Position numbers and translations under genes: made by a program. From an uncultured Gammaproteobacteria bacterium (lineage in GTDB: Bacteria; Patescibacteriota; Microgenomatia; UBA12405), in assembly GCA_964544275.1 (NCBI GenBank), contig CAZIZX010000001.1:196342-260341 (forward strand): a DNA stretch of 64,000 bases, read 5' to 3'. Below the pieces are notes generated by a model. It made no database searches, was not told the DNA's origin, and saw nothing but the letters and a program-made list of their open reading frames with translations. Below are positions 23,453 to 63,755 of this stretch, piece by piece (within the stretch, counting starts at the first letter, position 1; each line of letters begins with the position of its first letter).

Positions 23453-24184
23453 ATGAAAAAACCAATCATCGACGAAATCTCAGTCTTTTTCCCCGCTTAC
23501 AACGAAGAAAAGAACCTCAAAACTACGGTATCCAAATCCATAGAAGTACTCAAATCTATTTCCCGCAAATGGGAAGTTATTATTATCAACGACGGTTCCA
23601 AGGATAAGACCCAACAGGTTGCCGAAAATATTAAATCCGACTATCCCGACAACATCAGCATCATCACCCACAGTCCCAATAGGGGATACGGTGCTGCCCT
23701 AAAAAGCGGTCTTTATAACTCAAAATATCAATGGATCGCCTTTATTGATTCCGATGGCCAATTTGATTTCGCCGAAATCAATCACCTTATAAAAAAACAA
23801 AAAGAAACCAAAGCCGATCTTGTTATCGGCTACTACCTTGGCAGAAAAGTGCCTTTTTATCGAAAATTTGGCTCACAGCTTTGGCAATTGGCTGTTTTCA
23901 CTCTATTTGGCCTTAAAGTCAGGGATATAGACTGTGGTTTCAAGCTGATCAATAAAAAGGTTGTCGACGCTATCCCCAGGTTGGAATCAGAACGGGGCCC
24001 GTTCATCTCTTCTGAATTCCTTATTCATTCCAAAAAAGCTGGTTTCAAAATTGTTGAAATTGGCGTTAACCATTACCCTCGCACAGCCGGAGAAGCCACT
24101 GGTGCCAAACTAAGCGTTGTTCTCGCCGGTTTCAAAGATTTATTCACTCTCTGGAAAAAAATTAACCTGGCTCATGCTAAGTAA
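23453..24184 (+). CDS. GT2 polyprenyl-phosphate monosaccharide synthase (DPM1/GtrB/ArnC-like).
   Basis: ISVFFPAYNEE, IIINDGSKDKT, RGYGAALKSG, FIDSDGQFD and DCGFKLI are motifs of the soluble-domain DPM1-like GT2 fold. Confidence 0.8.
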   Translation: MKKPIIDEISVFFPAYNEEKNLKTTVSKSIEVLKSISRKWEVIIINDGSKDKTQQVAENIKSDYPDNISIITHSPNRGYGAALKSGLYNSKYQWIAFIDSDGQFDFAEINHLIKKQKETKADLVIGYYLGRKVPFYRKFGSQLWQLAVFTLFGLKVRDIDCGFKLINKKVVDAIPRLESERGPFISSEFLIHSKKAGFKIVEIGVNHYPRTAGEATGAKLSVVLAGFKDLFTLWKKINLAHAK

Positions 24185-25676
24185 AATCTTCCATCACAGA
24201 GGGTTAATTGTTTTAATCCTTCTTCTAGCTGCCTTCCTTCGTCTCTATCGCCTCCCTGAATACATGGAATTTTTGGGTGATCAAGGCCGAGATATGTTAA
24301 TTATTCGGGACTTGCTCAAAAACGGGAACCTGTTTTTTATCGGGCCCACCACCAGCATGGGACACATGTACCTTGGGCCTTACTATTATTACTTGATCGC
24401 CCCGTTTTTACTTATTTTCAACTTCAATCCAATCGGCCCTTCTGTTTTTGTTGCTCTCTTAAGCGTCTTGACCTGCTATTTAATCTACAAAATAAGCTGT
24501 GCTTGGTTTAATAAACCAATTGCTTTTTTGTCCTCTCTCCTTTTTGCCATATCGCCGGTAGTAATCAAATACTCAAATTTTTCCTGGAATCCAAACGTCA
24601 TGCCTCTGTTTTCGCTCCTGTTTATTTACTTTGTTTCCCAGGCTGTTTTCAAAAACAAACCCCGAGACTTGCTTTTCGCTACCCTCGCCTTTATTATGGC
24701 AATTAATTCTCATTATCTTGCTGTCTTATTGCTACCTCCCGCCTTTTTACTTTTACTTTACAAATTTTTAAAAGTCAAAAAAGACAGTAAAAACCCAAAT
24801 AAATCATTCAGTTTATATCTACTGCTCTCTTTCTTACTTTTTCTAGTCTCTTTAACGCCACAGATACTCTTTGACATCAGGCACAACGGCCAAAATATTA
24901 ACGCTTTTATCAGTTTCTTTTTTGACAGGCAATCAGGTACGGGATTCAATCTTATAAAGTATTTCCAGTCAATTCCTCAAATTACGTTCCTGATTTTCGG
25001 ACGTCTGATAACGGCAAAATACTTAAATATTGGCTTATTGTTCACTATATTTTCATCTTTATTTGTTTTGGTAAAAATTATAAATATCCTAAAGACCAAA
25101 TCCTATTCACAAAATAAGTATTTTATTTTACTCGTCACCTGGATTGCGTCTGGGATCCTCGGCCTTAGTCTTTATAATTTACAACTTGATCACTATTTTG
25201 GCTTCTTATATCCTGCAGTCTTTATCTTAACAGCTTTTTTTATTCATCAAGTTTACAAATCCTTTTCAATCTTGCGGATTACGTCGTTCATCATCACCCT
25301 TACCCTAATTATTTTATCTTTTCTCCAAAATCCCTTCCGTTTCTCTCCGCCCCGACAGCTTATTTACACTCGAAACATTGTCGACTTTATTATCAATCAA
25401 TCCAGCGACGAACCCTTTAATTTTGCCCTATTATCCAAGAACAACTATGACCCTTCATATCGCTATTTTTTTTATGAGAATGACTCACCCATCTTTGATC
25501 TTCACAACAAACTAACTGAACAGTTATTTGTCGTCTGCGAACCTTGGCAAAATGATTGCCAGCCCATAAACCACCCCCAATGGGAAATCGCCGCTTTCGG
25601 TTGGTCAAAAATTGACAAAGAATGGTCCGTTGAAGGAACGACGGTTTTTAGGCTAGTCCACAACAAGCAACCTTAA
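24174..25676 (+). CDS. Polytopic membrane protein, putative GT-C-type glycosyltransferase; paralog of 28046-29362.
   Basis: About 12 predicted TM segments. The N-terminal LRLYRL...GDQGRD...GPTTSMGHMYLGPYYYY is shared with the ORF at 28046. It follows a DPM1-like GT2, as in ArnC/ArnT-type pairs. Confidence 0.45.
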   Translation: MLSKIFHHRGLIVLILLLAAFLRLYRLPEYMEFLGDQGRDMLIIRDLLKNGNLFFIGPTTSMGHMYLGPYYYYLIAPFLLIFNFNPIGPSVFVALLSVLTCYLIYKISCAWFNKPIAFLSSLLFAISPVVIKYSNFSWNPNVMPLFSLLFIYFVSQAVFKNKPRDLLFATLAFIMAINSHYLAVLLLPPAFLLLLYKFLKVKKDSKNPNKSFSLYLLLSFLLFLVSLTPQILFDIRHNGQNINAFISFFFDRQSGTGFNLIKYFQSIPQITFLIFGRLITAKYLNIGLLFTIFSSLFVLVKIINILKTKSYSQNKYFILLVTWIASGILGLSLYNLQLDHYFGFLYPAVFILTAFFIHQVYKSFSILRITSFIITLTLIILSFLQNPFRFSPPRQLIYTRNIVDFIINQSSDEPFNFALLSKNNYDPSYRYFFYENDSPIFDLHNKLTEQLFVVCEPWQNDCQPINHPQWEIAAFGWSKIDKEWSVEGTTVFRLVHNKQP

Positions 25677-27346
25677 AGCTTTGTTTTCAAAACTCTATAA
25701 GCGAGAGGTCCATTCGGCAGAAATATGTCTTTCACCAAAACCAGATTATGGTCTTCAATTTGCTGGTCAGATAGGGCCAAAGCATCACATATTAAATACT
25801 GCTCAACCCCGCTGGTATCTTTCCCAAACTCAATGTTTTTGACCGTTACTTTACCCAGATATTTTTCGTTTACTCTGCTTAGGTTTTCATAATAATCCTG
25901 GGGGAGTACCTCGATATTATCGGCCTGATATAAATCCGGACTATACTTCAACCAAAACAAAGCCTGAATATATGGTTCAGCCCTGGAGTTATCAATAATA
26001 ATCGGCAAATCAGAATCATCCTCGATTACCGTCTTTATAGCTTCTTCTATTCCATAACCCCAATAAGAAGCCCGAAAATATTCGTTTAATTTAAAAACAC
26101 TGCTGTTCAATTTAATAACGGAATAAGACACTCCTAACAGAACAACTGCAACCATAATTTGATACTTCGCCCGATTCTTTACAAGCCAATCGAGACCCAA
26201 ACTCATTACCATTACCAATGGTATCAATTGTGGCAAAGCTCTGATTGTTGAATATGGGTCGCGTGTCAAAGACGCTGGTATTGGGGATACTAGCAACATA
26301 CAAACGACAAAATACCTTAATTTCCCTAGATTCTTACATCTAAACAGAACAATTAGTCCTAAAACATAAAAAGGAAATTGCCAGGCAAAAAAAGCGGAAA
26401 CATCGGGATATGAACTTCTAGGTTCAGCGTCACCCAGATTAAATAAAAATCTGGGTGAATAATAAGAAGAATATAACGATAAAAATTCTCTGGCCATTAA
26501 AGTAACTTTCTCGTTAATCAGAAAAGAAATTTGTCCGCTAGCCTGAAAGTCGTGACCGTATGGCATATTTCTCTGGGTTGAAAATATATTCAACACACTC
26601 GCTCTGGCCGAAAATCCGGGAGTTCTGGCAATCAACACTGTCGGCAAAACCATTATCACTCCCAAAATAACAGAAATTGTCAACGGCAATACGCTTTTTC
26701 TTAGGTTGTCCCACATTATTTTTCTATGATGAAAAACCAACAAGATTAAAATAACTGGGGCCACAATTCTTTCGGAATGATAAGTCAAAAAAGACAAAGC
26801 CCAAAAAATCGCCGACACCACCAGCAACCATTGTTTTTTAAACGACTTGTAAAACAACAATATAGCAACCATTAAAAACAACAAAGCCAGGTTAGTTTCA
26901 TAGGTAGTCCGAGACATTACTATATGCCAGGGTGAAACAGCCAACAAAAAGGCAGACAGCAACGGTAGGGTTCTTTTATATTTTTTTGGGCTGATTTCTT
27001 TGACCAAAAGATACAATATAACTACACTAAATAATCCAGCAACAGCAGACGGCAATCTGGTTACTCTTGGACCCAACTCGGCAAAGTTCAACACCAATGC
27101 CAATATGTAACCATAAACGGGAGCCTTAAAATCACCGAAAGACCGAAACACTACCGGTAGTGTTTTTCCAAACTCATCCTTACCCGTAACCTTCAAAGAA
27201 TAGGCATTATATCCTATCGCTGCTTCATCCAAATAAAATCCCTTTGGTACCTCGCCTAATTTATAAAACCGAAAATATCCACCAATTAATAAAACAATTA
27301 TGAATAATAAATATTTCATATTACTCTTATCAATTCCATCAAACAA
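25673..27346 (-). CDS. GT-C glycosyltransferase of the ArnT/PMT (GT39/GT83-like) family.
   Basis: N-terminal YLDEAAIGYNAYSLKVTGKDEFGKTLPVVFRSFGDFKAPVYGY matches the DE..Y...A......G.DE.G..P...RS.GD.K.P.Y signature of polyprenyl-P-sugar-dependent GT-C enzymes. Polytopic. Confidence 0.75.
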   Translation of the reverse strand: MFDGIDKSNMKYLLFIIVLLIGGYFRFYKLGEVPKGFYLDEAAIGYNAYSLKVTGKDEFGKTLPVVFRSFGDFKAPVYGYILALVLNFAELGPRVTRLPSAVAGLFSVVILYLLVKEISPKKYKRTLPLLSAFLLAVSPWHIVMSRTTYETNLALLFLMVAILLFYKSFKKQWLLVVSAIFWALSFLTYHSERIVAPVILILLVFHHRKIMWDNLRKSVLPLTISVILGVIMVLPTVLIARTPGFSARASVLNIFSTQRNMPYGHDFQASGQISFLINEKVTLMAREFLSLYSSYYSPRFLFNLGDAEPRSSYPDVSAFFAWQFPFYVLGLIVLFRCKNLGKLRYFVVCMLLVSPIPASLTRDPYSTIRALPQLIPLVMVMSLGLDWLVKNRAKYQIMVAVVLLGVSYSVIKLNSSVFKLNEYFRASYWGYGIEEAIKTVIEDDSDLPIIIDNSRAEPYIQALFWLKYSPDLYQADNIEVLPQDYYENLSRVNEKYLGKVTVKNIEFGKDTSGVEQYLICDALALSDQQIEDHNLVLVKDIFLPNGPLAYRVLKTKL

Positions 27347-28041
27347 AAAATTAAATAAAACCCAAAAAGCAACCTTGCCTGTTTAAATCTGGCCATAATT
27401 CCAAGTCCATAAATTATCATTAACCCCAACGGAAACCACAAGACAAAATCATACCTGTCCGGGTTTTTCAACAAAGCCAGCAAAATAATCAGGCTTGAAC
27501 TTAAAGCCACCCACCAGGTTCTATTTTTATATTTTTTTATGTTTATGACTCCAACGAAAAATGGAATTATCGCCAAAAAAGGGAACTTCATTAAATTCTG
27601 GTTGTCGCCCACCAACTCTCTTGGGTGTAGCCCAAAAAAATAATTGTTCGGGTCAATCAACAAAAATAAATTTTTATTATATTTATCAATCACCTCAACA
27701 TACTTGTTTTGTAACAGCAGTGCTTCAATTCTGTTGTCATAAAGAGATCTTTTTGTGTTCAAATAATGCCAGTCCAGTTCATTTCTGCCCAATATTGTCA
27801 ATCTATCAATCCGATTTTTACCGCCAAAAAATATTCCCAAAAAAAGGACACCCAAAACCAAAATGAAACTTTTTAATTTCCCTTTTTTGAAACAATAAAA
27901 ACTCGTACCAATAATCAAAATTGAGGCAATTAATCCAAGGCACAACAAATTAATTCCATTGTATTTCCAAAACAAATATGGCCAAAATACTAATGATATT
28001 ATTGAAGCAATAAATACCTTTTTACAAACAACCAATCTCAT
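27316..28041 (-). CDS. Polytopic membrane protein, unknown function; the start codon is uncertain and the ORF extends to 28122.
   Basis: 7-8 hydrophobic segments and no recognisable catalytic motif. Its 3' end overlaps the ArnT-like gene. The 5' end would collide with the divergent gene at 28046 unless the internal Met at 28041 is used. Confidence 0.35.
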   Translation of the reverse strand: MRLVVCKKVFIASIISLVFWPYLFWKYNGINLLCLGLIASILIIGTSFYCFKKGKLKSFILVLGVLFLGIFFGGKNRIDRLTILGRNELDWHYLNTKRSLYDNRIEALLLQNKYVEVIDKYNKNLFLLIDPNNYFFGLHPRELVGDNQNLMKFPFLAIIPFFVGVINIKKYKNRTWWVALSSSLIILLALLKNPDRYDFVLWFPLGLMIIYGLGIMARFKQARLLFGFYLIFCLMELIRVI

Positions 28042-28045
28042 TAAT

Positions 28046-29362
28046 ATGAGTATTATTACACAACCAAACAAGGCTTTTTTATTACTAATTATCATTTTGG
28101 CCCTGTTTTTTCGGTTATACAATTTAGAAAACCGCTACTCTTTTGACTGGGACCAGGAAGACGACGCCGTCAAAGTCACCCAAATGATAAAGACTAAACA
28201 CCCCCGGCTTTTGGGTCCCCGTGTTGCCGGCGAAGAAGGATTTTTCGTCGGCCCTCAACACTATTATTTTTTGATTCCATTTTATCTTTTGACCAAACAA
28301 GATCCGATTGCTGGTGCCTACGCCTCAGTGTTTATCGGTATCTTAACTACCATTGTTTACTACTTAATCAGCCAAAAATTATTCAACCGAAAAATTGGCC
28401 TTTTTGCCTCTTTTATCTTTGCCATCAACCCCATCTTAACTAGCTGGAATGTCATGTATGCTCCCTTAATTTCCTTATTAATCTTTTTTTTATGTCTCCA
28501 AATCTTGAATGGCCAAACCAAATATTATCCTTTTTTATTCTTTGCTTTTTCATTTTCCGCCACCACTCACTTAGTTCCGGCATCTCTTATTATTCCTGTT
28601 ATTTTTAGTCTTTTAGTATCCCCAAAACCAAACAAAAAAACCTTCTTTATTTCTCTTTTCGTCTTTTTCATACCCCTTCTCCCTCTTATTATTTTCGATT
28701 TTAGAAATGATTTTCTCAACCTCAAAACAATTTTCACCTTTATCCAGTCCAGGTCAGTATCACAGTCTGTTCCAAATTATTTTCTAAGAAGCTTTTTTAG
28801 AAGCTTAAATATCTTTTTGCCTTTTGTTCCAGACTTTATCGGCCGCCTTTTGGCATTAATATTACTCCCACTATCAATCACCCTCTTTACCACCAAAAAA
28901 ACAAAACTTTTTTACCTTATCTGGATTCTTACTCCTCTCGTTTTATTGTCTCAATACCACGCCAGTATACCCGAATATTATTACGGGATGGTTACAGCCC
29001 TTCTGCCCCTGCTTATCTCATTTTTCGTAGTCAAACTCAAACAGCCCTTACTGATAATAACAATAATTTTAATATTTCTTCTGGAATTACCTGGTCTTTT
29101 TACAAAAAAAGCTAGCATATCGTTAAAAGTCAAAAAAGACACTGTTCAATACCTCAGCTACCAAACCCGAGACCAGCCATACAATGTATCATTTGACCTT
29201 CCCCTCGGCTGGCACACCGGTTACAACTACCTTTTTTCTTATTACCGAAACCCGCCTCAGGAAATTCCTCAGGCCCATCTTTATTCCATTTACTTACTGT
29301 CAGAACCTGCCACCGGCGAATTAGTTTACGAAAATAATCCACTCGGTGTTGTTAGAAAATAG
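28046..29362 (+). CDS. Polytopic membrane protein, putative GT-C-type glycosyltransferase; paralog of 24174-25676.
   Basis: FRLYNLENRYSFDWDQEDD...GPRVAGEEGFFVGPQHYYFLIPFYLL aligns with the N-terminus of the ORF at 24174. About 12 TM segments. The ORF track begins at 27959; I prefer the internal Met just before TM1. Confidence 0.45.
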   Translation: MSIITQPNKAFLLLIIILALFFRLYNLENRYSFDWDQEDDAVKVTQMIKTKHPRLLGPRVAGEEGFFVGPQHYYFLIPFYLLTKQDPIAGAYASVFIGILTTIVYYLISQKLFNRKIGLFASFIFAINPILTSWNVMYAPLISLLIFFLCLQILNGQTKYYPFLFFAFSFSATTHLVPASLIIPVIFSLLVSPKPNKKTFFISLFVFFIPLLPLIIFDFRNDFLNLKTIFTFIQSRSVSQSVPNYFLRSFFRSLNIFLPFVPDFIGRLLALILLPLSITLFTTKKTKLFYLIWILTPLVLLSQYHASIPEYYYGMVTALLPLLISFFVVKLKQPLLIITIILIFLLELPGLFTKKASISLKVKKDTVQYLSYQTRDQPYNVSFDLPLGWHTGYNYLFSYYRNPPQEIPQAHLYSIYLLSEPATGELVYENNPLGVVRK

Positions 29363-29370
29363 CTACTATT

Positions 29371-30159
29371 ATGTATAATCATCTTATGCAAAACAAAGTT
29401 TCCATTGTTATTCCCTGTTTTAACGAAGAGGACAATATTAAAAGAGGTGTTCTGGAACAAGTTTATCAATTTTTGCGCCGACAAAAATACGATTGGGAAG
29501 TATTAATCTGCAATGACGAGTCCACCGACAATAGCCTACGTCTTGCTCGCCAGTTTGCCTCAAAACACGATAATTTCTCAGTACTTAACCTGCCTCATGG
29601 CGGCAAACCTTCGGCTGTTTGGGGAGGAATTCAAAAAGCAAAATATCCGCTAGTTCTTTTTACCGACATGGATCAATCAACTCCGCTCGAAGAACTAAAC
29701 AAATTACTGCCGTTTTTCCAAAAAAATTACGATGTTGTTATTGGTTCCCGCGGCGTTCAGCGTCAAGGCAATTCCAATATCAGAAAATTAATGTCTCGAG
29801 TTTTTTTGCTTTTCAGAAGATCAATTTTATTGTCAGATATCACCGACACTCAATGTGGTTTTAAAGCATTCAAAACAGACGTCGCCAAGAAACTTTTTCC
29901 CCGACTTCAATTTTTTCAGGACAAAGATAATAAATCAGGCTGGAGAGTTTCTGCCTTCGATGTCGAATTATTGTTTATGGCCCAAAAGGCTGGCTACAAA
30001 ATCAAAGAAGTTCTGGTTGAATGGAAAAACGAAGATATCAGTACCACCAAAGGTGACGATTCAGCCAGATTCAAAAAAGAATCAAAACAAATGCTTCAGG
30101 AAATCTGGCGTGTCAAAAAAAATGATTTAATGGGAACTTATGACTCTGTCAAAAAATAA
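29371..30159 (+). CDS. GT2 polyprenyl-phosphate monosaccharide synthase (DPM1-like).
   Basis: VSIVIPCFNEEDNI, LICNDESTDNS, TDMDQSTP and TQCGFKAF. The C-terminal amphipathic region is as in DPM1/ArnC. Confidence 0.8.
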   Translation: MYNHLMQNKVSIVIPCFNEEDNIKRGVLEQVYQFLRRQKYDWEVLICNDESTDNSLRLARQFASKHDNFSVLNLPHGGKPSAVWGGIQKAKYPLVLFTDMDQSTPLEELNKLLPFFQKNYDVVIGSRGVQRQGNSNIRKLMSRVFLLFRRSILLSDITDTQCGFKAFKTDVAKKLFPRLQFFQDKDNKSGWRVSAFDVELLFMAQKAGYKIKEVLVEWKNEDISTTKGDDSARFKKESKQMLQEIWRVKKNDLMGTYDSVKK

Positions 30160-37527: not shown

Positions 37528-37528
37528 T

Positions 37529-39225: not shown

Positions 39226-39236
39226 TATAATAAAAC

Positions 39237-56959: not shown

Positions 56960-58353
56960 CCCAAGTTATCCTCATCAATCCGCCCATTTTCTATCACCAG
57001 GGAAACCCTGTCTCCCTCGATACCAGCTTTCCACCACTCGGACTCCTTTATTTGGCTTCGACACTAAAACAGAACAATATTTCAGTCAAAACCCTAGACG
57101 TCGGGGCCCAAAATTTAAACCTAGACGATACCTTATCCTTTATCAAAAACGAAAACGCCGTTATTGTTGGTATCACCTCCATGACACCAACACTCCAAGG
57201 TGCAGTAACATTGGCCAAGTCTATAAGATCCAAATTCAAAAACGTCAACCTCGTCCTGGGCGGATCTCATATCAGTGCTGACCCCGATTTTATCAGGCGC
57301 CTGCCTTTTTTCGACTTCGCTATTCAGGGCGAATCCGAATTAACTTTTTTAAATCTAGTCCAACAGGTCCTTGACGGCAAGAAAATTCGCGGCACCCATC
57401 TGGGCAAACCGGCTCAAAACCTCGACCATCTTCCCTGGCCCGACAGAAACCAATTACCCTCAAACTCATACCTCAAAAAAGCCGATTTAATTGCCACCCG
57501 AGGTTGCCCTTTTAACTGTTATTACTGCAGTCGCCCGGCGGTCAGCAATTGCATCCGCTATCGGTCTCCCAAAGACATTGCCGACGAAATGGATTCTCTC
57601 TATTCTTCTTCTGGCGGTGATTATTTGTTTCAAGATGACTCCCTCACCATCAACAAAGCTCATATAATCGAACTGTCCGAAGAACTCATCAAACGCTCAA
57701 AGCGTTATCACTGGGAAGGATATACCCGAATCGATCTGGTTGACGCAGATGTCCTGTCAGCTATGTCTCAAGCTGGTTGTCACAACTTAACTTTTGGCAT
57801 CGAAACAGGTGATGAAAAACTCAGGCGAGAAGTTGTCAAAAAACCCTTTACCAATTCCCAAATAAAAAATGTTATCAAACTCTGTCAAAAATATCACATT
57901 ACCGCCAGTGGTTTTTTTATCATCGGTCACTATTCGGAAACCAAAACCCAAGTCACCAAAACCATAGACTTTATACTAAAAAACAATTTCGATGTCGTTG
58001 GTGTATCGATCGCCACTCCTTTTCCCGGATCAAAACTTTGGGATTATGCCATCAACGACAAAATAATCGATCTGAAATTTATCGATAATTTTGCTCTCGG
58101 AAAAATGGGGGATGGTTACGCCGGAATCTACCCTGTTTATCACCCCTCCCGCCTTAAGCTGGATTGGCTCTACCAGCAAAGACGCTATGTCATGAGAAAG
58201 TTTTATCTTCGCCCCAAATTTATTCTCAATCGTCTTGCCAAAGACATCTTGTCACCTCAATACCTATACGCCGACATCAAGGAGGGGTTAAATGTCTTAG
58301 TCAAAGGCTCTTCCTCCCGCGCTCCTTACAAAAAACAAACCAAATATCTCTAA
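56956..58353 (+). CDS. B12-binding-domain radical SAM enzyme (class B-like).
   Basis: N-terminal B12-binding-like domain (LGLLYLASTLKQNNISVKTLD.....VIVGITSMT). Canonical RGCPFNCYYCS. C-terminal radical SAM TIM barrel. Confidence 0.75.
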   Translation: MTQVILINPPIFYHQGNPVSLDTSFPPLGLLYLASTLKQNNISVKTLDVGAQNLNLDDTLSFIKNENAVIVGITSMTPTLQGAVTLAKSIRSKFKNVNLVLGGSHISADPDFIRRLPFFDFAIQGESELTFLNLVQQVLDGKKIRGTHLGKPAQNLDHLPWPDRNQLPSNSYLKKADLIATRGCPFNCYYCSRPAVSNCIRYRSPKDIADEMDSLYSSSGGDYLFQDDSLTINKAHIIELSEELIKRSKRYHWEGYTRIDLVDADVLSAMSQAGCHNLTFGIETGDEKLRREVVKKPFTNSQIKNVIKLCQKYHITASGFFIIGHYSETKTQVTKTIDFILKNNFDVVGVSIATPFPGSKLWDYAINDKIIDLKFIDNFALGKMGDGYAGIYPVYHPSRLKLDWLYQQRRYVMRKFYLRPKFILNRLAKDILSPQYLYADIKEGLNVLVKGSSSRAPYKKQTKYL

Positions 58354-58354: not shown

Positions 58355-59554
58355 ATGACAAAAAAAATTGTCTTTATTTTCAACCAACTTAACGGTACTG
58401 AAATTGCTACCGGCGGCGACTTTAAATCAAAGACCATCCTTGATCACTTTTCAAAAGATAAGGGCTATTTTGCTGTCGTCATCGCTCCCGGAAGTTTCAA
58501 AAATCACTTTACCAAATTTACTTTCTATCCAACCGGAATTAATTTTCTGGAAAGGTTAAATAAATCTCAAAATCCCTTTTTTGTTACGGTTCTCTTCAGT
58601 ATTAGAGCTATATGTGTATTTTTCATATTACTAAAAATCAAACCTCAAATAATATATTCCACTGGGGACTTTTTTTGCAACGTCATTCCCGCATCCATAT
58701 TCAAACGTATTTTCCCCAAAACTATCTTCACTTCCTGTGTTTTTCACCTAAATCAACCGCCCCACAAAAGACAATCGAACTCCTTAGTCAGAAATATCTT
58801 TTCTTACACATTCCAACAACTTAGCCTCCTCTTCCTTAAATATTCAGCCGACAAAATTTTTCTCCTTAACAACCAAGTTCTTCACTATCTTCTAAATGCC
58901 AAACATATACCCGACAACAAATTGGTAGTTTCATGTGCCGGAGTTGATTCAAATAATATTCAAAAAACAATTTCTAAAACCAACAAAAAAAAGGATCAGT
59001 TGGTATATTTCGGCCGCCTCAACTCCACTAAAGGAGTTTTTGACCTACCGCCAATATTGTCACATATCTTAAAAGAATGCCCAAACTACCGCCTCCACTT
59101 AATCGGCTTCGTCGACGAGAGCACGAAAAAACATTTATTAAATGAGTTTAAAAAATATAACTGCCATAAATCAATAATCTTCCATGGCTTTATAAAGTCC
59201 AAAACCGATGTCTACAAAATTATTGCCTCATCTAAAGTCGCCATTTTCCCCTCATACGAAGAGGGCTGGAACATCGCCCTTTTTGAAGCTATTGCTTGCG
59301 GTTGTCCGGTGGTCACTTATAAATTACCTGTTTATACAGAAATTTTTAAGGACTCTCTATTATCTGCGCCTATCGGTGACACAAAAGCACTATCATCCCT
59401 AATAGTTTCATTATTAACAGAGTACAATGAAAATAAAATTAAAAGGTATGTAGGCAAAACCCTATCAGTCATTAGGCAATACAACTGGTCAAATGTCTAT
59501 AACATTGAAAAAAAATCAATCGAAAATCAACTCCAGGGTAATCTGGGAAAATGA
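58355..59554 (+). CDS. GT4 (GT-B) glycosyltransferase.
   Basis: LVYFGRLNSTKGV, and EEGWNIALFEAIACGCPVVTY (E-x7-E). Confidence 0.75.
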   Translation: MTKKIVFIFNQLNGTEIATGGDFKSKTILDHFSKDKGYFAVVIAPGSFKNHFTKFTFYPTGINFLERLNKSQNPFFVTVLFSIRAICVFFILLKIKPQIIYSTGDFFCNVIPASIFKRIFPKTIFTSCVFHLNQPPHKRQSNSLVRNIFSYTFQQLSLLFLKYSADKIFLLNNQVLHYLLNAKHIPDNKLVVSCAGVDSNNIQKTISKTNKKKDQLVYFGRLNSTKGVFDLPPILSHILKECPNYRLHLIGFVDESTKKHLLNEFKKYNCHKSIIFHGFIKSKTDVYKIIASSKVAIFPSYEEGWNIALFEAIACGCPVVTYKLPVYTEIFKDSLLSAPIGDTKALSSLIVSLLTEYNENKIKRYVGKTLSVIRQYNWSNVYNIEKKSIENQLQGNLGK

Positions 59555-60284
59555 ATGGCTTCAATTTTCCCAAAATGCCTATTTCAGGCCAAACTATAGT
59601 TTTGTAAATCAAATTTCAAATCTATATTCAAACCACATGAGTGGAATAAAAACACTTGAAGTAGGAGCTGGATCCGGCAGCGACTCTATCTATCTAGCCA
59701 AAAAAGGCACCGACACTTCACTTGTCGATTTTTCTTCTCACTCAATTGCTGTGTCACAGAAAATTGCCAAAGCCAATCATGTCAAAGTCCACACCTATCA
59801 AGCCGACTGTCGTCACCTTCCCTTTAAATCCCAAACATTTGATCTTGTCTTTTCCGTAGGTCTCGTCGAACACTTTTCCAACCCTATTCCAGTTCTAAAG
59901 GAACAGCTCCGTGTTCTTCGAAACGGCGGCATTCTCATTATTGATGTTCCCCAAAAGTTTAACCCCTATACACTCGTAAAAAAACTCCGCATGTTAACTG
60001 GCACCTATCCTTTTGGATGGGAAACGGAATATTCACTTTTTGATTTAAAAAGGCTTGCCCGTAAGCTAAAAATTGCTCCTCTCAAATTCTATGGCAGAAA
60101 CAGCTCTCTAACATTAAAACTCCACCCCAAACTACAACCCCACTATTCCAAAATTTTTGCTATTATCGAGTCATCTCCGATCGCTCCTTTTCTTTGCCTT
60201 TGCATAGGAGGAATATTTAAAAAAATACATGTCAGAAAAAGTTTCTGTCGTGATGCCTGCCAAAAACGAAACCACATCCTTTAA
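59493..60284 (+). CDS. Class I SAM-dependent methyltransferase.
   Basis: Motif I LEVGAGSGSDSIYLA, motif II LVDFS and motif post-I/III FDLVFSVGLVEHF. The 5' end overlaps the upstream GT4 by ~60 nt, and the start is not certain. Confidence 0.65.
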   Translation: MSITLKKNQSKINSRVIWENEWLQFSQNAYFRPNYSFVNQISNLYSNHMSGIKTLEVGAGSGSDSIYLAKKGTDTSLVDFSSHSIAVSQKIAKANHVKVHTYQADCRHLPFKSQTFDLVFSVGLVEHFSNPIPVLKEQLRVLRNGGILIIDVPQKFNPYTLVKKLRMLTGTYPFGWETEYSLFDLKRLARKLKIAPLKFYGRNSSLTLKLHPKLQPHYSKIFAIIESSPIAPFLCLCIGGIFKKIHVRKSFCRDACQKRNHIL

Positions 60285-61032
60285 AAATGGACTTCTGGAT
60301 AGTGTTTTATCAACAATTCCTTCCCGATTTGAACCCCACCTTGTTGTTTCTATTGGCGGCAATTCCAACCTGGAATTCACTGATCTTGTCCAGGAAATAT
60401 CGGGAAGAAATCCAAACATTCACCCACTCCTTCTCGGTAATCCACCCTTGGCCACAGCTTATCTAACAGGTCTTCAATACGCCCAAAAAGAACTAGGCGC
60501 CAATTATATTGTTGAGATGGATGCCAGCGGTGCTCACCATCCAAAATATATTCCTGACTTTATTAGATCCCTAGCCGAGGAAGGTTTCGACGCTGCCTTT
60601 TCATCCCGCTTCTCCAAAGGTTCCGCCATTGACCGTTACCCTCTTCAACGCCGTCTTGTTAGCCGACTTGGTACCGTGTCGGCCAATCTAACCTTTGGTT
60701 TTTGGCCTCACTGGCCCGATCTTACCAGTGGCTTTGAGTCCTTTTCCAACACCACTCTTCAACAAATTCTCTGCCATAAACCTGTCGGGACCTGGATTTC
60801 GGAAACCAAAGGACCTGGCCATTTCTATCAAACAGAAATGAGGGTCAGAATACTAAAAAATAATTTTCAAGTCCAAACCATTCCTATTATCTGGGGGACT
60901 GATCGAGCCCAACCTCCAACTAAACTTCCTACCAGAACTGTCCTTCAAGCCTTAACCAGCTTACTTGTACTCAAACAAGAACTCAACTCTTCACCATTAT
61001 CTCGACAAACCAACACACCCCATGAAAGCTAA
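60229..61032 (+). CDS. GT2 polyprenyl-phosphate monosaccharide synthase (DPM1-like).
   Basis: VSVVMPAKNE, VEMDASGAHHP, SSRFSKGS and TSGFESF. Confidence 0.65.
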   Translation: MSEKVSVVMPAKNETTSFKNGLLDSVLSTIPSRFEPHLVVSIGGNSNLEFTDLVQEISGRNPNIHPLLLGNPPLATAYLTGLQYAQKELGANYIVEMDASGAHHPKYIPDFIRSLAEEGFDAAFSSRFSKGSAIDRYPLQRRLVSRLGTVSANLTFGFWPHWPDLTSGFESFSNTTLQQILCHKPVGTWISETKGPGHFYQTEMRVRILKNNFQVQTIPIIWGTDRAQPPTKLPTRTVLQALTSLLVLKQELNSSPLSRQTNTPHES

Positions 61033-62050
61033 TTCTCCTTCAGTATCCGCCATCGTTCTCAACTACAATGGTAAACATCTATTAGAAGAATCTCTCAACT
61101 CGCTTCATCATCAAACTTACTCCAATTTTAAAATTTACGTCCTCGACGCTTCTTCGTCCGACGGCAGTTCTGAATATATAAGAAAAAATTACCCAAAAGT
61201 TACCATCATCAATGCCCCGTCAACCCTTGGTATCGCCGGATCCAGCAATACTGCCGCCCACACCACTACTGAAAGCTACCTGGTTTTTTTGAGTAATGAC
61301 ATGAAGTTCGACAAAAACTGTATTTCTCAATTGGTAGAAACAATCACCAAAGACCCACGCTGCGGTATATGTTCAGCTGTCCTCCTCAAGCACGACAAGG
61401 ACCCGATCACCGGCAAATATCACATTGATAATGCTGGAATTGACGTTGACCTTTTTGGTTTTATCTCCCCTCATGCTAACTCAAAAACTCTTGATGACCT
61501 CCCCGACCAACCCTTTGAAACCTTTGCTTCCTGCGGAGGCTGTTTTATTATCAAACGCAATATATTCGAAAAAATTGGCGGCTTTGATACCGCCTTTTGG
61601 GGTCTTTCAGAAGACGTCGATCTCTCCTGGCGAACACGCCTTTTAGGTTTAAAAGTTACTGTTAACCCCAAATCCTATCTTTATCACCATATTTCTCCCT
61701 CTTTGGGCAAGTTAACCATAAAAAGAACCAGATTTCTCAGCGAAAGAAACAACCTCCGGATGCTTTTGAAAAATTATTCCTCACCCAACCTGTTTTTGCT
61801 CCTCCCTCTCTATGCCGTCCTTGAAATTGGCGAAGTATCCTTTTATCTTCTCCGACGTCGTCCTGAATTATCTATCTCTATCATAAAAGCCGTACTTTGG
61901 AATATGATCCATTTGCCCGATACGCTCAAACAAAGACGCAAAATCCAAAAAATCAGAAAAGTTACTGACCAAAAAATTATGCAATTACTAAGTCATTCAA
62001 GCTTTAAACTAAAAATATTTCCTCAAGTCCTAAAAACAAAAGCTATATAG
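61022..62050 (+). CDS. GT2 glycosyltransferase.
   Basis: VSAIVLNYNGKHLL, IYVLDASSSDGS, FLSNDM and SEDVDLSWR. The ORF opens at 60965, but the Met at 61022 gives the canonical GT2 N-terminus. Confidence 0.75.
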   Translation: MKANSPSVSAIVLNYNGKHLLEESLNSLHHQTYSNFKIYVLDASSSDGSSEYIRKNYPKVTIINAPSTLGIAGSSNTAAHTTTESYLVFLSNDMKFDKNCISQLVETITKDPRCGICSAVLLKHDKDPITGKYHIDNAGIDVDLFGFISPHANSKTLDDLPDQPFETFASCGGCFIIKRNIFEKIGGFDTAFWGLSEDVDLSWRTRLLGLKVTVNPKSYLYHHISPSLGKLTIKRTRFLSERNNLRMLLKNYSSPNLFLLLPLYAVLEIGEVSFYLLRRRPELSISIIKAVLWNMIHLPDTLKQRRKIQKIRKVTDQKIMQLLSHSSFKLKIFPQVLKTKAI

Positions 62051-63755
62051 TCGACAGTTGTTTAATCCCCTCTATGGCTGGAGTGAATTGTGGCGATATT
62101 TTCAAAGCTTCTTTAAACAGTTTGCTTGCTTCCTCTTTATTTTTCATTTCCGCATAAACCACACCCACAACATAGTATGATTGCGGGTTATTTGGTTGTA
62201 ATTCAATTAATTTTTTACCATGCTCCTCAGCCAGTTTTAAGTTTCCCTCCATTATATCAATCTGTATCAGGCTTATATAAGTTTGAAATAGTTCCGGAGA
62301 ATAATATAAAGCAATATTGTAACTCTCTCTGGCCAAATCCAATCTGCCAATTTTAAAAAATATATTGGCCCGGTTATGGTAAGCATCAGCATAATTTTCC
62401 TTCATCAAAGTCGACTGAGTAAAACCTTTGATCGAATTTTCATAATCTTCCAGCTTGTCATAATCATCCCCGATATTATTCCAAGCATTATGACTGTTAG
62501 GTGACACCTGGACCGTATTCACCCACAGCTTATGGTTAGTACTCCAATCATTATTCCTCAAAATTACTCTGACCCCATAGAGCGCACATAACAAAACCAG
62601 CACCACATAACTTACTTCCTTAAATTTTTTAGCTAAATTTTCAAACAATATTCCCAGTAATAATGTAAATCCAAACGACCCTAAAAACACATATCTCTCA
62701 GCCACTAACCAACTTACCTTAAGTGGTGCCATCGACGGAGCGGTTGCCAGAAAAATAAATACCAAAGCATAAAATATTACTCTATTTTTTACGAAAAAGT
62801 AACCGACGGCACCCAAATAGGTTAGTAACACTATCCAATTTAACCAACTAGGTAACACATACATCGTATGGTATAACGTCAAATCTGTCGGAACCAGCAT
62901 TAACTGCAAATACTTTGTTATTGCTGTCGGGTACTGAAAAAAGGGATTATAAAAAATGCTTTCAGACATATTGTAGCCCGAGTTTACGCTATCCAACCTG
63001 CTCATTATTGCCGGCCACATAATAACACTCATTACAACACCTCCAACAAGCAGCCCACCCATTATCTTACCCATATCAATCCTGACTTTAATTCTTCCCT
63101 TATATGCAACCAAATAAGCCAAAAATAGGGGGATAAGAGCAAATGATCTCACCCTGTCCGAAAAAAATGCCAACATAAAAAATAATCCAGCCATCATCAG
63201 GCTTTTTATTCTTCCATCCTTTGAATATATTGATAGATATATCAACGACAACAATGTAAACAGTGACACCAGAAGATAAGGGACTCCGGATATCCAGGAA
63301 ACCGCTTCCACATGTATTGGCAGCACTACAAATATAATCGTTGTCAAAAATGCCACATGCTTGTTAGTCAGTAACTTTGCATATACGAAAACCAAGCAAC
63401 ATATAACAAGATACAAAAACAGGCTATATACATGGAAAGCAACCGGACTTTCCACTCCAAATATTACTGCGATTAAATATTTAGAAAATCCAACTAAATT
63501 AAATCCTGGAAACAAAACCAGGAACCTTTTGATATCCGGGTTTTGTGTAATTGAAGCATAGTCGTCGGATACAAAATTTCCACCCAAAGAATTAGCATAT
63601 AACAAAATAACCCCGATAACGATTCCTACCAAAAATCTCCAATGCTCTTTGATAATCTTTGTAAACCCAACTGTTTCGCCCGAGTTCATCTTCTCGTTTA
63701 TACCAACCTCTTCCTGCTTGACTCTTCTTTGCTGTTTTACTTTCTTTTGAGACAT
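62043..63755 (-). CDS. GT-C-type membrane protein with C-terminal tetratricopeptide (TPR) repeats (PMT/TMTC-like architecture).
   Basis: The N-terminal ~400 aa are polytopic. The C-terminal ~160 aa contain at least four TPR-like 34-mers (AWNNIGDDYDKLEDYENSIKGF..., AYHNRANIFFKIGRLDLARESYNIAL..., SYYVVGVVYAEMKNKEEASKLFKEALKISP). Confidence 0.6.
   Translation of the reverse strand: MSQKKVKQQRRVKQEEVGINEKMNSGETVGFTKIIKEHWRFLVGIVIGVILLYANSLGGNFVSDDYASITQNPDIKRFLVLFPGFNLVGFSKYLIAVIFGVESPVAFHVYSLFLYLVICCLVFVYAKLLTNKHVAFLTTIIFVVLPIHVEAVSWISGVPYLLVSLFTLLSLIYLSIYSKDGRIKSLMMAGLFFMLAFFSDRVRSFALIPLFLAYLVAYKGRIKVRIDMGKIMGGLLVGGVVMSVIMWPAIMSRLDSVNSGYNMSESIFYNPFFQYPTAITKYLQLMLVPTDLTLYHTMYVLPSWLNWIVLLTYLGAVGYFFVKNRVIFYALVFIFLATAPSMAPLKVSWLVAERYVFLGSFGFTLLLGILFENLAKKFKEVSYVVLVLLCALYGVRVILRNNDWSTNHKLWVNTVQVSPNSHNAWNNIGDDYDKLEDYENSIKGFTQSTLMKENYADAYHNRANIFFKIGRLDLARESYNIALYYSPELFQTYISLIQIDIMEGNLKLAEEHGKKLIELQPNNPQSYYVVGVVYAEMKNKEEASKLFKEALKISPQFTPAIEGIKQLSTI

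Follow-up and report, generated by a model that had tools for sequence, protein, structure and literature searches.

What would a CPR bacterium with a tiny genome do with 35 back-to-back genes for assembling a surface sugar coat and modifying it chemically? Such a run of genes occupies positions 23453-63755 of the window, i.e. the whole 64-kb stretch of DNA analyzed here. In our judgement the locus probably specifies a two-compartment, polyprenol-linked glycan assembly line with radical-SAM tailoring.

Gene content and source of the locus

The interval contains 35 tightly packed ORFs, 31 on the plus and four on the minus strand (Table 1). Intergenic gaps reach 29 bp at most, and at 24 of the 34 junctions the ORFs overlap, in many cases by 4 bp; the initial annotation had described about the same number of genes and the same arrangement. 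Glycan-related enzyme or transporter families cover 33 of the 35 consecutive ORFs, so the locus is not a chance feature, and Pfam searches left these family calls standing. Four GT4 enzymes, one Wzx flippase (Polysacc_synt_3, 3e-40) and four radical SAM enzymes (two B12-type and two SPASM) were found, in exactly the numbers annotated. The GT2 enzymes number 13 (PF00535 matches above the Pfam gathering cut-off) instead of at least 14, and the polytopic GT-C-type membrane proteins ten instead of six to nine. The latter count combines Pfam, paralogy and orthologues, profile comparison and, for 31685 and 34872 (genes are denoted by their first coordinate), predicted structure. All ten have an acidic dyad after TM1, and five (24117, 25673, 27959, 42093 and 43604) pass the PMT_2 cut-off. 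Of two methyltransferases claimed, one (59493) lies in the interval, while the second is probably 18591-19325, upstream of it. The remaining two ORFs encode small membrane proteins of unassigned family. In line with the reported lack of nucleotide-sugar synthesis genes, the 59 ORFs of the window yielded no match to a nucleotidyltransferase, epimerase, dehydratase or aminotransferase family.

Table 1. Features of the glycan locus and its upstream neighbours.
Feature	Position	Strand	Evidence or remark
LytR-CpsA-Psr (LCP) glycopolymer ligase	17537..18601	+	PF03816 8.8e-23
DUF11/CLIPPER surface protein	22537..23229	-	PF01345; signal peptide, VPKTG sorting signal
GT2, 243 aa, soluble	23453..24184	+	PF00535 5.8e-29
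GT-C (PMT_2), ~12 TM	24117..25676	+	PF13231 2.8e-16; kept in relatives
GT-C (PMT_2), YLDE loop-1 motif	25673..27346	-	PF13231 2.6e-12
Small polytopic membrane protein, 268 aa, ~7 TM	27316..28122	-	unassigned
GT-C (PMT_2)	27959..29362	+	PF13231 2.5e-6, above cut-off
GT2, 262 aa, soluble	29371..30159	+	PF00535 2.2e-26
Probable GT-C, 508 aa, ~10 TM, FGDE loop motif	30140..31666	+	profile comparison
GT-C, distinct Shapirobacteria-wide family	31685..33427	+	directly upstream of Wzx; predicted structure
Wzx/MOP-family flippase	33364..34875	+	PF13440 3.2e-40, PF01943 1.2e-19
GT-C without Pfam coverage	34872..36575	+	predicted structure; 4-bp overlap with Wzx
Conserved block of five Leloir GTs	36592..41293	+	Pfam
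GT2 (block of five)	36592..37527	+	
GT2 (block of five)	37529..38443	+	
GT2 (block of five)	38422..39225	+	
GT4 (block of five)	39237..40424	+	
GT2 (block of five)	40421..41293	+	
GT2 opening variable middle region	41290..42096	+	PF00535 7e-27
GT-C (PMT_2), variable cassette	42093..43574	-	PF13231 1.3e-9
GT-C (PMT_2), WDE loop motif	43604..45181	+	PF13231 2.6e-7
Small polytopic membrane protein, 253 aa, ~8 TM, near-orphan	45171..45932	+	precedes GT-C 45929
GT-C, PMT-like, PDE loop motif	45929..47515	+	paralogy and orthologues
Block of four Leloir GTs	47519..51205	+	Pfam
GT2 (block of four)	47519..48337	+	
GT4 (block of four)	48334..49404	+	
GT2, synthase-like (block of four)	49401..50210	+	
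GT2, 2 C-terminal TM (block of four)	50207..51205	+	
Radical SAM, class-B-like, B12-type	51192..52679	+	PF04055 3.9e-16; Cx4Cx2C at C224/C229/C232
GT2 between radical SAM genes	52669..53688	+	PF00535 1.2e-25; kept in L036, L040, L116
Radical SAM/SPASM, variable tailoring slot	53685..54695	+	PF04055, PF13186; CNGRCFMC motif
GT4	54697..55854	+	PF00534 2.6e-29
Radical SAM/SPASM, conserved	55841..56959	+	PF04055, PF13186
Class B (B12-binding) radical SAM	56956..58353	+	PF02310 3.5e-21, PF04055 1.4e-18
GT4	58355..59554	+	PF00534 2e-25
SAM-dependent methyltransferase	59493..60284	+	PF08241 3e-20
GT2	60229..61032	+	PF00535 2.4e-11
GT2	60965..62050	+	PF00535 2.2e-21
Probable GT-C membrane domain, ~12 TM, SDDY loop, C-terminal TPR repeats	62043..63755	-	TPR families

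FtsE and its neighbours have their nearest relatives in Patescibacteria and Candidatus Shapirobacteria MAGs, and homologues carry the latter name. The Rel protein in the window (482 aa) has HD, RelA_SpoT and TGS domains only, bearing out the short Rel and compact housekeeping genes noted before. By sequence affinity, the source is a reduced Patescibacteria/CPR bacterium near Candidatus Shapirobacteria. The very large investment in glycans that had been proposed is evident: 20 glycosyltransferases were reported for one whole CPR genome (PMC5220378), whereas this single locus encodes 17 Leloir GTs and ten GT-C proteins.

Two neighbours outside the interval may bear on the fate of the glycan. The LCP gene is syntenic in related loci L004 and L006-L010. 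The divergently oriented DUF11/CLIPPER gene, with a promoter-like site at 23229-23201 that fits the sigma-70 consensus perfectly, is conserved in position in relatives.

Glycosyltransferases and the flippase

On the cytoplasmic face, about 14 soluble or peripheral GT2 and GT4 enzymes would assemble an oligosaccharide, long and probably without repeats, on a polyprenyl carrier, using common nucleotide sugars produced elsewhere. The window lacks an initiating phosphoglycosyltransferase (WecA/MraY or WbaP type), so the carrier-linked start is assumed. The block of five Leloir GTs occurs in identical order in L033 (55-77% identity), and in the same order in L114 and L115; the block of four is 58-74% identical in L036, L040 and L116.

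The lipid-linked glycan would then be flipped by the Wzx/MOP protein (NCBIfam MOP flippase, 3e-29, sub-cut-off), which lies between two GT-C genes. Protein 31685 has 1316 homologues and an invariant D40-D41 pair; its AF2 model (pLDDT 85.6, pTM 0.90), with a predicted C-terminal beta-sandwich and terminal TM helix, matches STT3, AftA, AglB and ArnT in Foldseek (E 1e-5 to 1e-3). The family of 34872 (~1,600 clusters, D44 invariant) has a predicted AglB/STT3-like fold, C-terminal globular domain included; the WWDXG motif is not present in 34872, and a search for an HMM-level link to STT3 found none. These are two undescribed families, new at the sequence level. Wzx adjoins 34872 in every relative, and in one database protein (P0285) it is fused to a GT-C of this family, a sole fusion that could be a frameshift or gene-calling artefact. 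Fold, adjacency and the fusion suggest that, once flipped, the lipid-linked glycan is acted on outside the membrane by 31685 and 34872, which most likely hand it over en bloc to an acceptor in the envelope; the GT-C fold equally fits an en bloc transferase, a single-sugar transferase or a polymerase. The glycan could end up on surface proteins, sortase-anchored or other, with the DUF11/CLIPPER protein as a candidate, or the LCP enzyme nearby could attach it to peptidoglycan.

A second route would begin with the small ArnC/DPM1/PgfS-like GT2s 23453, 29371 and 49401, which group together by sequence and may make polyprenyl-phosphate monosaccharides. The best NCBIfam matches of 23453 (63-80% identity in relatives) are ArnC, AglJ, PgfS, dolichyl-P hexose transferase and PpgS, and those of 29371 (57-77%) are PgfS and ArnC, all sub-cut-off. 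Both are candidate polyprenyl-phosphate sugar synthases, the former ArnC/DPM1/PgfS-like. The C-terminal TM helices of GtrB/ArnC are missing from these GT2 "synthases", whose scores fall far under every curated cut-off. No flippase of the GtrA type, which would move polyprenyl-P-sugars, was detected, and this counts against the assembly line.

From these donors, the PMT/PMT_2-type GT-Cs and the TPR-containing GT-C would add single-sugar decorations extracytoplasmically. Protein 24117 is the partner of the preceding 23453 and has a paralogue in 27959 (2e-20). Proteins 25673, 43604 and 45929 are also paralogues (blastp of 45929 to the first two: 1e-43 and 1e-45); orthologues of 45929 match PF02366 PMT in L116 and, weakly, PMT_2 in L001 and L002. 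Both small membrane proteins are encoded just before GT-C genes: 27316, which precedes 25673 on the minus strand, has no Pfam, NCBIfam or PDB match, and 45171, with no family match, yielded one homologue (42% identical), in L116 likewise just upstream of the GT-C orthologue. Protein 30140 is sub-threshold for PMT_2 (E 0.015), which its L115 orthologue matches, and aligns in hhalign with the 43604 family (E 1.3e-5) and with 42093 (E 1e-4). The membrane domain of 62043 has no Pfam or PDB match but resembles 24117 (blastp 8e-6, hhalign 1.6e-5); this gene is the conserved end of the locus (51-53% identity in L036, L037 and L040). The PMT/PMT_2-type cassettes are the part that differs between relatives: the one containing 25673 is missing from L008 and L009, the region around 42093 differs in L033, L114 and L115, and in L114 a GT2 resembling 41290 follows YfhO.

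Could the locus instead follow the conventional Wzx/Wzy scheme and make a cell-wall polysaccharide or capsule from repeat units, with 31685, 34872 or 30140 as polymerase? We regard this as rather unlikely, although it is the strongest competitor. The LCP enzyme would ligate the polymer to peptidoglycan and GtrB/GT-C-like pairs would glycosylate its side chains, on the model of streptococcal/lactococcal cell-wall polysaccharides and of mycobacterial arabinogalactan. The presence of Wzx, the syntenic LCP gene a few kb upstream adjoining FtsEX-M23, the YfhO and GT87 cassettes of relatives and, in one of them, a downstream ABC-2 transporter all favour it. However, Pfam and NCBIfam searches of the locus detected no Wzy_C/O-antigen-ligase family, chain-length regulator or phosphoglycosyltransferase, and 17 Leloir GTs far exceed the typical need of a repeat unit. 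The failure of Pfam to detect Wzy_C, Wzz or ABC exporter families in the locus supports the two-compartment assembly line.

Radical SAM enzymes and sugar tailoring

Within that assembly line, the four radical SAM enzymes and the methyltransferase, presumably translationally coupled to GTs, may tailor sugars of the growing glycan by C-methylation, deoxygenation, oxidation/decarboxylation or epimerisation. They would provide a variety of sugars that the locus does not generate in nucleotide-activated form. The best solved relatives of 55841 and 56956 are BlsE (cytosylglucuronate decarboxylase, 2.3e-12) and AprD4 (sugar diol-dehydratase, 1.6e-17); both act on sugars, and the similarity is modest. 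Protein 51192, a paralogue of 56956, has HpnJ and BchE as top NCBIfam matches, far under cut-off, and its orthologue shows a weak B12-binding match. None of the radical SAM enzymes reaches a curated NCBIfam cut-off, and their substrates could be non-glycan. Identities are 64-65% for 51192 (L036, L040), 52-61% for 55841 (15 metagenome loci), 41-45% for 56956 (L037, L039, L040, L044) and 50-53% for the GT4 54697 (L035, L036, L046). The methyltransferase 59493 probably starts later, since gene callers give 215 aa, e.g. in L001.

The slot of 53685 is occupied by a methyltransferase in L036 and by two SDR epimerase/dehydratase genes in L040, and in relatives another variable slot of this region contains a carbamoyltransferase. 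These genes indicate that it is this genome, not the locus type, that lacks sugar-nucleotide genes.

It is improbable that the 40 kb comprises several independent systems side by side (Ppm1/PMT-type protein O-glycosylation, a glycan dependent on Wzx, and a natural-product or RiPP-like module with radical SAM enzymes). SPASM/B12 radical SAMs are typical of RiPP/cofactor maturation, judging from NCBIfam neighbours, and some GT2s are weakly similar to the SunS peptide S-glycosyltransferase; yet the radical SAM region has no precursor-peptide-sized gap, protease or exporter. The four strand switches, the variable middle region and the different sets of related contigs recovered for the first half (L004, L008, L009, L010, L033, L114, L115) and the second half (L036, L037, L039, L040, L116) would also suit separate systems. 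Against this, radical SAM and GT genes alternate one-for-one through overlaps of 4-14 bp or 1-bp gaps and are kept together at 41-65% identity, sugar-tailoring enzymes occupy the variable slots of relatives, and distant SPASM homologues (25-27% identity) lie within GT2/GT4 clusters in L049 and L051.

Conservation and parallels with known pathways

Gene order is preserved in relatives at 40-80% amino-acid identity, beside LCP-FtsEX-M23 and a sortase-substrate gene. At least five relatives keep the order DUF11/GT2/GT-C/.../GT2/GT-C/GT-C/Wzx/GT-C/GT2x3/GT4/GT2, and others GT-C/GT2/GT4/GT2/GT2/rSAM/GT2/.../GT4/rSAM/.../TPR-GT-C. The locus is thus a lineage core with variable cassettes, variation being confined to GT-C cassettes and tailoring slots. 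It is a conserved lineage feature, not a horizontally acquired island; the term "island" of the initial annotation, taken as a variable or acquired block, is not supported. An assembly chimera or recently acquired foreign island, to which the termination of both independently assembled Logan contigs no more than 600 bp from where the window ends and the absence of cassette 25673-29362 from some relatives might point, is refuted for practical purposes by the agreement of three assemblies (the two Logan contigs, spanning by coordinates 1901-64574 and 19305-64044, are 99.82% and 99.98% identical to the window over the 17,045 bp compared, 46956-64000), by GC content (0.36-0.44) and GC skew continuous with the flanks, by the failure to find a tRNA, integrase or flanking repeat at the locus, and by synteny with housekeeping genes in relatives down to ~40% protein identity.

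The proposed assembly line shares its logic with the dolichol/ALG pathway and with the mycobacterial arabinogalactan pathway; compared with both, the putative radical-SAM tailoring is the extra element here.

Gene content and integrity of the locus

The DNA between positions 23453 and 63755 forms a compact locus of 35 ORFs, 31 of which are located on the plus strand of the ORF map. Overlaps were found at 24 of the 34 gene junctions, many of them of the 4-bp ATGA type, and the widest gap is 29 bp. Inside the locus, a promoter scan gave nothing above shuffled expectation and a terminator scan gave weak terminator-like matches only. The distinguished genes are summarized in the table.

Features of the locus and of its upstream flank (ORFs of the locus are named by start coordinate)
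Feature	ORFs or coordinates (strand)	Assignment or description
Housekeeping and envelope genes	upstream 23 kb	UvrC, class I Trp/Tyr-type aminoacyl-tRNA synthetase (PF00579), Rel, sortase, GreA, LysRS, SerRS, SecA, BipA, RF2, LCP, FtsE, FtsX, M23 peptidase, DUF11 protein
Rel	1673-3121 (-)	482 aa; HD, RelA_SpoT and TGS domains only
Sortase	3124-3834 (-)	
ORF overlapping the LysRS end	6011-6622 (+)	203 aa; sub-threshold HD-domain match only
LCP ligase	17537-18601 (+)	
Upstream methyltransferase	18591-19325	after LCP gene
Conserved single-TM protein	19379-19843	154 aa, no family; directly before FtsE-FtsX-M23
DUF11/CLIPPER surface protein	22537-23229 (-)	
GT2 (13)	23453, 29371, 36592, 37529, 38422, 40421, 41290, 47519, 49401, 50207, 52669, 60229, 60965	PF00535
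GT4 (4)	39237, 48334, 54697, 58355	PF00534
Wzx/MOP flippase	33364	PF13440, 138.6 bits; about 9 or more hydrophobic segments
PMT_2 GT-C above cut-off (5)	24117, 25673, 27959, 42093, 43604	PF13231
Radical SAM (4)	51192 (51192-52679)	Pfam
	53685, 55841	Pfam; with SPASM
	56956	Pfam; with B12-binding domain
Methyltransferase within the locus (1)	59493	Pfam
Small polytopic proteins	27316-28122 (-), 45171-45932 (+)	window
	19874-20563 (-)	relative's contig L115
	1100-1870	relative's contig L116

The GT2 proteins score 44-102 bits against PF00535 (gathering cut-off 23.3), and the GT4 proteins 76-102 bits against PF00534 (cut-off 26.4). Assignment of 33364 to the Wzx/MOP flippases is based on the Polysacc_synt_3 profile and polytopic topology; none of the NCBIfam equivalog cut-offs was reached. 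An exact-protein look-up of this ORF with its longest-ORF TTG start gave no match, and the real start is probably located downstream of this codon. Pfam and topology predictions distinguished seven polytopic membrane proteins of the locus that have no Pfam match. Paralogue pairs within the locus share 21-42% identity, i.e. all paralogues are old, so the array does not reflect recent amplification.

The Pfam assignments agree with the glycan-related gene families named in the initial annotation, and the proposed borders hold, with a CofD/YvcK-family gene next downstream of position 63755. The counts of four GT4 proteins and four radical SAM enzymes stand, but there are 13 GT2 proteins, not at least 14, and ten GT-C proteins, not six to nine. 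Of the two methyltransferases that had been counted, one lies within the interval and the second is probably the one upstream. The claim that nucleotide-sugar genes are missing holds for the window, where none of the 59 ORFs matched a Pfam family for nucleotide-sugar synthesis or modification, but this absence is specific to the genome and not a trait of the locus type. Rel is indeed short.

No match to Wzy_C, Wzz, Bac_transf or Glycos_transf_4 was found among the 59 window ORFs, although Wzy proteins easily escape detection; the window lacks parts of the Wzy-dependent pathway. There was likewise no Pfam match to a UbiA-type DPPR synthase, a galactofuranosyl glycosyltransferase or the Emb family, nor to GtrA among the locus ORFs.

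Exact locus proteins are present on the NCBI contig and in two independent Logan assemblies. The genome is contained in the samples SRR27370451 and SRR8925753. By coordinate arithmetic, the Logan contigs span window positions 1901-64574 and 19305-64044, and they share 99.82% and 99.98% identity with the window over the 17,045 bp compared. The GC content (0.36-0.44) and a strongly negative GC skew run unbroken across the locus borders, and neither a tRNA gene nor an integrase was identified by tRNA scan and Pfam search. An assembly chimera was rejected because the independent assemblies agree and there is no compositional break at the borders. Horizontal acquisition was rejected on the basis of the uniform composition, the absence of tRNA and integrase genes and the synteny kept in relatives; the word "island", used in the initial annotation, is therefore inappropriate in its evolutionary sense. 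Both Logan contigs (L001 and L002) end 44-574 bp beyond the window end (about 64044-64574), in or just after the CofD/YvcK-family gene, and this shared end point may represent a repeat or a strain-variable point.

The plus strand of the window (1-64000) contains 25.1% C and 14.9% G, giving a GC skew of about -0.25, locally down to -0.45. Since the skew is the same in plus- and minus-strand genes, it is strand-specific and not transcription-specific. The C-rich strand carries 82% of the coding bases of the window. Leading strands are usually G-rich, and if this rule applied, most window genes would be placed on the lagging strand. Syntenic loci of relatives (contigs L004, L009, L010 and L036) have a skew of the same sign (-0.04 to -0.24).

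In a genome-collection scan, the nearest relatives of FtsE were found in Patescibacteria and Candidatus Shapirobacteria MAGs (60-80% identity). Contigs of three of the closest relatives (L004, L006 and L007) are filed under the name "uncultured Gammaproteobacteria bacterium" and come from binchicken/SRP co-assemblies; these titles look like taxonomic mislabels, because the contigs are syntenic with MAGs of Shapirobacteria, with 60-87% identity between proteins.

Conserved gene order and the GT-C proteins

The first half of the locus is syntenic with contigs L004, L008, L009, L010, L033 (1.12 Mb), L114 and L115 of relatives, at 40-80% protein identity. The conserved order is SecA ... RF2 – LCP – FtsE – FtsX – M23 – DUF11 (minus strand) – GT2 – GT-C, then 0-2 extra GT-C genes, followed by GT2 – 30140 – 31685 – Wzx – 34872 – three GT2 genes – GT4 – GT2. 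Beyond this block the gene content diverges: L114 and L033 encode YfhO, GT2 and GT87, L115 has PMT_2 cassettes together with a small membrane protein, and the window encodes a GT2, two PMT_2 proteins and an 8-TM protein. The methyltransferase gene that follows the LCP gene was found only in the closest relative, L004.

The second half is syntenic with L036, L037, L039, L040 and L116 (41-74% identity). Its order is 45929 – GT2 – GT4 – GT2 – GT2 – radical SAM 51192 – GT2 – slot – GT4 – B12 radical SAM – SPASM radical SAM – slot – TPR-GT-C (minus strand). The slots contain a SPASM radical SAM gene in the window, a methyltransferase gene in L036, two SDR epimerase/dehydratase genes in L040 and a carbamoyltransferase gene in L039; in relatives, the slots also contain methyltransferase genes, a GT4 gene and as many as three extra B12 radical SAM genes. 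Classical sugar-tailoring enzymes occupy the slot of 53685 in relatives. Judged by these comparisons, the locus is a scaffold that belongs to the core of the lineage, whereas its extracytoplasmic GT-C cassettes and its sugar-tailoring genes can be exchanged.

An acidic dyad directly follows the first TM helix in all ten GT-C proteins. The PMT_2 cut-off was not reached by 30140 (15.9 versus 26.1 bits), 45929, 31685, 34872 and 62043. Nevertheless, 25673 (1e-43) and 43604 (1e-45) are evident paralogues of 45929, whose orthologue in L116 matches the true PMT family PF02366. Profile-profile alignment connected 30140 with the families of 43604 (E 1.3e-5) and 42093 (E 1e-4), and its orthologue in L115 matches PMT_2. 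Protein 62043 is composed of a polytopic N-terminal domain and C-terminal TPR repeats; by itself the membrane domain matched nothing in Pfam or, by sequence, in the PDB, but it is connected to the 24117 family by profile alignment (227 columns, E 1.6e-5) and blastp (8e-6). Searches of the PDB with phmmer gave nothing for 30140, 31685, 34872, 45171 and the 62043 membrane domain, and only chance TRIM25 matches for 27316.

The small polytopic proteins (229-268 aa, 7-8 hydrophobic segments) are each encoded directly upstream of a PMT-like GT-C gene. Neither 27316 nor 45171 could be related to a family, structure or profile, and nothing supports a role for either as a Wzy, GtrA, UbiA-type protein or acyltransferase. 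The single detectable homologue of 45171 in 5.8 billion clusters is located just upstream of a GT-C orthologue in L116. These proteins may be fast-evolving GT-C partners, e.g. carrier-sugar flippases.

Proteins 31685 and 34872, encoded on either side of Wzx, have 1316 and 1226 homologues, respectively. Most of these are unnamed, while those with an organism name come nearly all from Candidatus Shapirobacteria and are mostly annotated as "hypothetical protein". An AlphaFold2 model of 31685, built from a 66-sequence alignment (pLDDT 85.6, pTM 0.90), gave Foldseek matches to STT3, AftA, AglB, ArnT and Pmt4. For the 34872 model (pLDDT 92.8, pTM 0.91) the top matches were STT3A, DPY19, AglB and PglB (E 4e-9 to 4e-6, TM about 0.5). 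Thus, for the two proteins modelled, confident predictions find exclusively GT-C folds as top matches. Invariant residues are D40/D41 in the 31685 family and D44 in the 34872 family.

Neither 34872 nor 54 diverse members of its family matched an STT3 profile of Pfam or NCBIfam; 31685 scored 19.6 bits against archaeo_STT3 (cut-off 450). The WWDXG motif is missing from all ten GT-C proteins and from the alignments A1, A2 and A3. At the sequence level, then, 34872 is not an STT3. Profile searches of the PDB with A1 and A2 gave nothing useful, and for 34872 nothing at all. The HMM of the 31685 family recovered only itself among the proteins of the window, and hhalign comparisons of both families with the PMT_2 paralogues were insignificant. 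At the sequence level both are separate families, placed by predicted structures only.

An exhaustive profile search revealed that the 34872 family is closed, with 1595 clusters at 50% identity. The 54 diverse members lack Pfam domains, the sole exception being P0285, which is fused to a Wzx domain (1639 aa: Wzx, soluble domain and GT-C). Many members (P0243, P0249-P0253, P0259 etc.; 13158-16202 of L033) are 1000-1160 aa long and carry an N-terminal signal-anchor and a soluble extension that measures about 430-500 aa and gave no Pfam match; in another group the extension is about 90-100 aa. On the strength of the models, 31685 and 34872 represent two GT-C families that are so far undescribed and whose genes occupy the centre of a conserved envelope locus of CPR bacteria; their roles are putative.

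Radical SAM enzymes and a putative pathway

Protein 56956 is a class B radical SAM enzyme, containing a PF02310 domain (75.7 bits, cut-off 32.1), a PF04055 domain and the motif CPFNCYYC. Placement of 51192 in class B relies on paralogy and the weak B12 match of an orthologue only. Its N-terminal B12-like domain received no Pfam call and is hinted at by similarity to 56956 and HpnJ as well as by the orthologue's match. The cysteines C224/C229/C232 of 51192 form a Cx4Cx2C motif; the other three enzymes have the canonical Cx3Cx2C. Both 53685 and 55841 match PF04055 and the SPASM family PF13186 above cut-off and have 5-6 C-terminal cysteines. None of the four enzymes reached a curated NCBIfam subfamily; among solved structures, 56956 is closest to AprD4 and 55841 to BlsE, both of which act on sugars.

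The radical SAM genes alternate with glycosyltransferase genes, at junctions that overlap by 4-14 bp or leave a 1-bp gap, and they are conserved together with glycosyltransferase genes in relatives. This alternation and co-conservation, the kinship with BlsE and AprD4 and the sugar-tailoring genes found in the 53685 slot lead us to infer that these enzymes tailor sugar residues of the glycan. The conserved alternation suggests radical chemistry on envelope glycans. A RiPP module was rejected as an interpretation, because there is no room for a precursor gene and there are no protease or exporter genes.

In the proposed pathway, Leloir glycosyltransferases would assemble a lipid-linked glycan in the cytoplasm, and the MOP flippase would export it. 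The small GT2 proteins 23453, 29371 and 49401 would make polyprenyl-P-monosaccharide donors, to be used by the GT-C proteins outside the membrane. These three proteins group together, and their best matches, all below cut-off, are ArnC, PgfS, AglJ, dolichyl-P-hexose transferase and PpgS. A long, unpolymerised heteroglycan might then be transferred en bloc, as indicated by the presence of 17 Leloir glycosyltransferases without a detectable Wzy, Wzz or ABC exporter, and by the STT3/AglB-like fold of 34872 and its tight coupling and occasional fusion with Wzx. The part list would fit the logic of two-compartment polyprenol pathways.

The types of GT-C (PMT, PMT_2, AglB-like fold and TPR fusion) and the DUF11 neighbour suggest a protein acceptor, while the syntenic LCP gene and the fold matches to AftA, AftD and Emb suggest a peptidoglycan-linked polymer. 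The DUF11 gene is the divergent neighbour of the first GT2 gene in every relative examined. Its product carries a signal peptide and, at the C-terminus, a sorting signal (VPKTG, hydrophobic helix and RKVSRGY). A promoter-like site at 23229-23201 is a perfect sigma-70-type TTGACA-17-TATAAT with an extended -10 TG, and the true start is probably the ATG near 23154, giving MRVTKAG.

A further scenario, which we consider rather improbable as a whole, concerns Shapirobacteria and possibly other Microgenomatia. Here, proteins would be glycosylated en bloc by an oligosaccharyltransferase of an independent sequence lineage, i.e. the Pfam-less 34872 family with its AglB/STT3-like fold, no WWDXG motif and coupling or occasional fusion to Wzx. 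The targets would be sortase-anchored DUF11 proteins or pilins. Once the glycan is assembled, cobalamin-dependent and SPASM radical SAM enzymes would diversify it by modifying sugars linked to a lipid or bound in a polymer. We know of no envelope-glycan pathway reported to tailor glycans by radical SAM enzymes after assembly.

Significance and comparison with known systems

CPR/Patescibacteria are generally regarded as bacteria that live attached to host cells and, to our knowledge, next to nothing has been learned about the chemistry of their surface beyond type IV pili. The many glycosyltransferases and elaborate surface of CPR genomes have already been published (PMC5220378, PMC8080830), including one whole genome with 20 glycosyltransferases (PMC5220378). 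In the searchable literature, the coverage of which is incomplete, no report was found that links Shapirobacteria with glycosyltransferases or glycan loci, or CPR with oligosaccharyltransferases or radical-SAM tailoring of envelope glycans. Here, one CPR lineage retains a glycan assembly line of about 40 kb, fixed beside cell-division and cell-wall genes, while the extracytoplasmic GT-C cassettes and the tailoring enzymes of this locus are swapped. Such a pattern would be expected if hosts or phages exert diversifying pressure on a surface structure. Handles on the locus, whose function we infer throughout, are two abundant unannotated GT-C families (one of about 1,600 clusters at 50% identity, without a Pfam model) and the conserved GT/radical-SAM alternation.

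The locus resembles dolichol N-glycosylation (ALG, DPM1/ALG5, RFT1-type flipping, STT3/AglB) in its cytoplasmic Leloir glycosyltransferases and flippase, small GT2 enzymes similar to polyprenyl-P-sugar synthases, several outer-face GT-C proteins and an STT3/AglB-fold enzyme adjoining the flippase. It differs in having no sequence-level STT3 member and no WWDXG motif, in its monoderm-like bacterial host and in the embedded radical SAM enzymes, of which the dolichol pathway, as far as we know, has none. With the mycobacterial/corynebacterial arabinogalactan-LAM pathway (Ppm1, Emb/Aft/PimE, Lcp1) it shares many GT-C proteins that would use polyprenyl-P-sugars outside the membrane and a nearby LCP ligase; unlike that pathway, it has a Wzx, and its GT-C proteins belong to PMT_2/PMT or undescribed families.

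The GT2/GT-C pairs 23453+24117 and 29371+30140 are reminiscent of the three-component systems GtrA/GtrB/GtrC, CsbB/YfhO, PgfS/PgfM1/PgfM2 of S. mutans and actinobacterial Ppm1/Pmt. Among NCBIfam families, the locus GT2 proteins match PgfS and ArnC best, YfhO occurs in the variable region of relatives, and the cassette variability recalls serotype-converting gtr clusters, which vary cassette-wise. However, the locus has no GtrA, its GT2 proteins lack the C-terminal TM helices of GtrB, and the scores are below curated cut-offs. Protein 62043, with its PMT_2-paralogue-related polytopic domain and C-terminal TPR, resembles the TMTC-type protein O-mannosyltransferases, which have a GT-C plus TPR architecture.

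Of the sugar-acting radical SAM enzymes known from antibiotic biosynthesis (AprD4, BlsE, GenK/GenD1, BtrN), AprD4 is nearest to 56956 and BlsE to 55841, while of the hopanoid enzymes (HpnJ, HpnH), HpnJ, whose substrate is a lipid-linked sugar, is the best NCBIfam neighbour of 51192 and 56956. In contrast to these enzymes, the locus proteins fall well short of the family cut-offs, the motif of 51192 is Cx4Cx2C and not Cx3Cx2C, and the surrounding genes form a GT/Wzx/GT-C locus for an envelope glycan, unlike clusters for secondary metabolites or hopanoids. By analogy, the locus would be functionally similar to the dolichol/ALG-OST pathway, mycobacterial arabinogalactan/LAM synthesis and Gtr/YfhO/Pgf three-component glycosylation.
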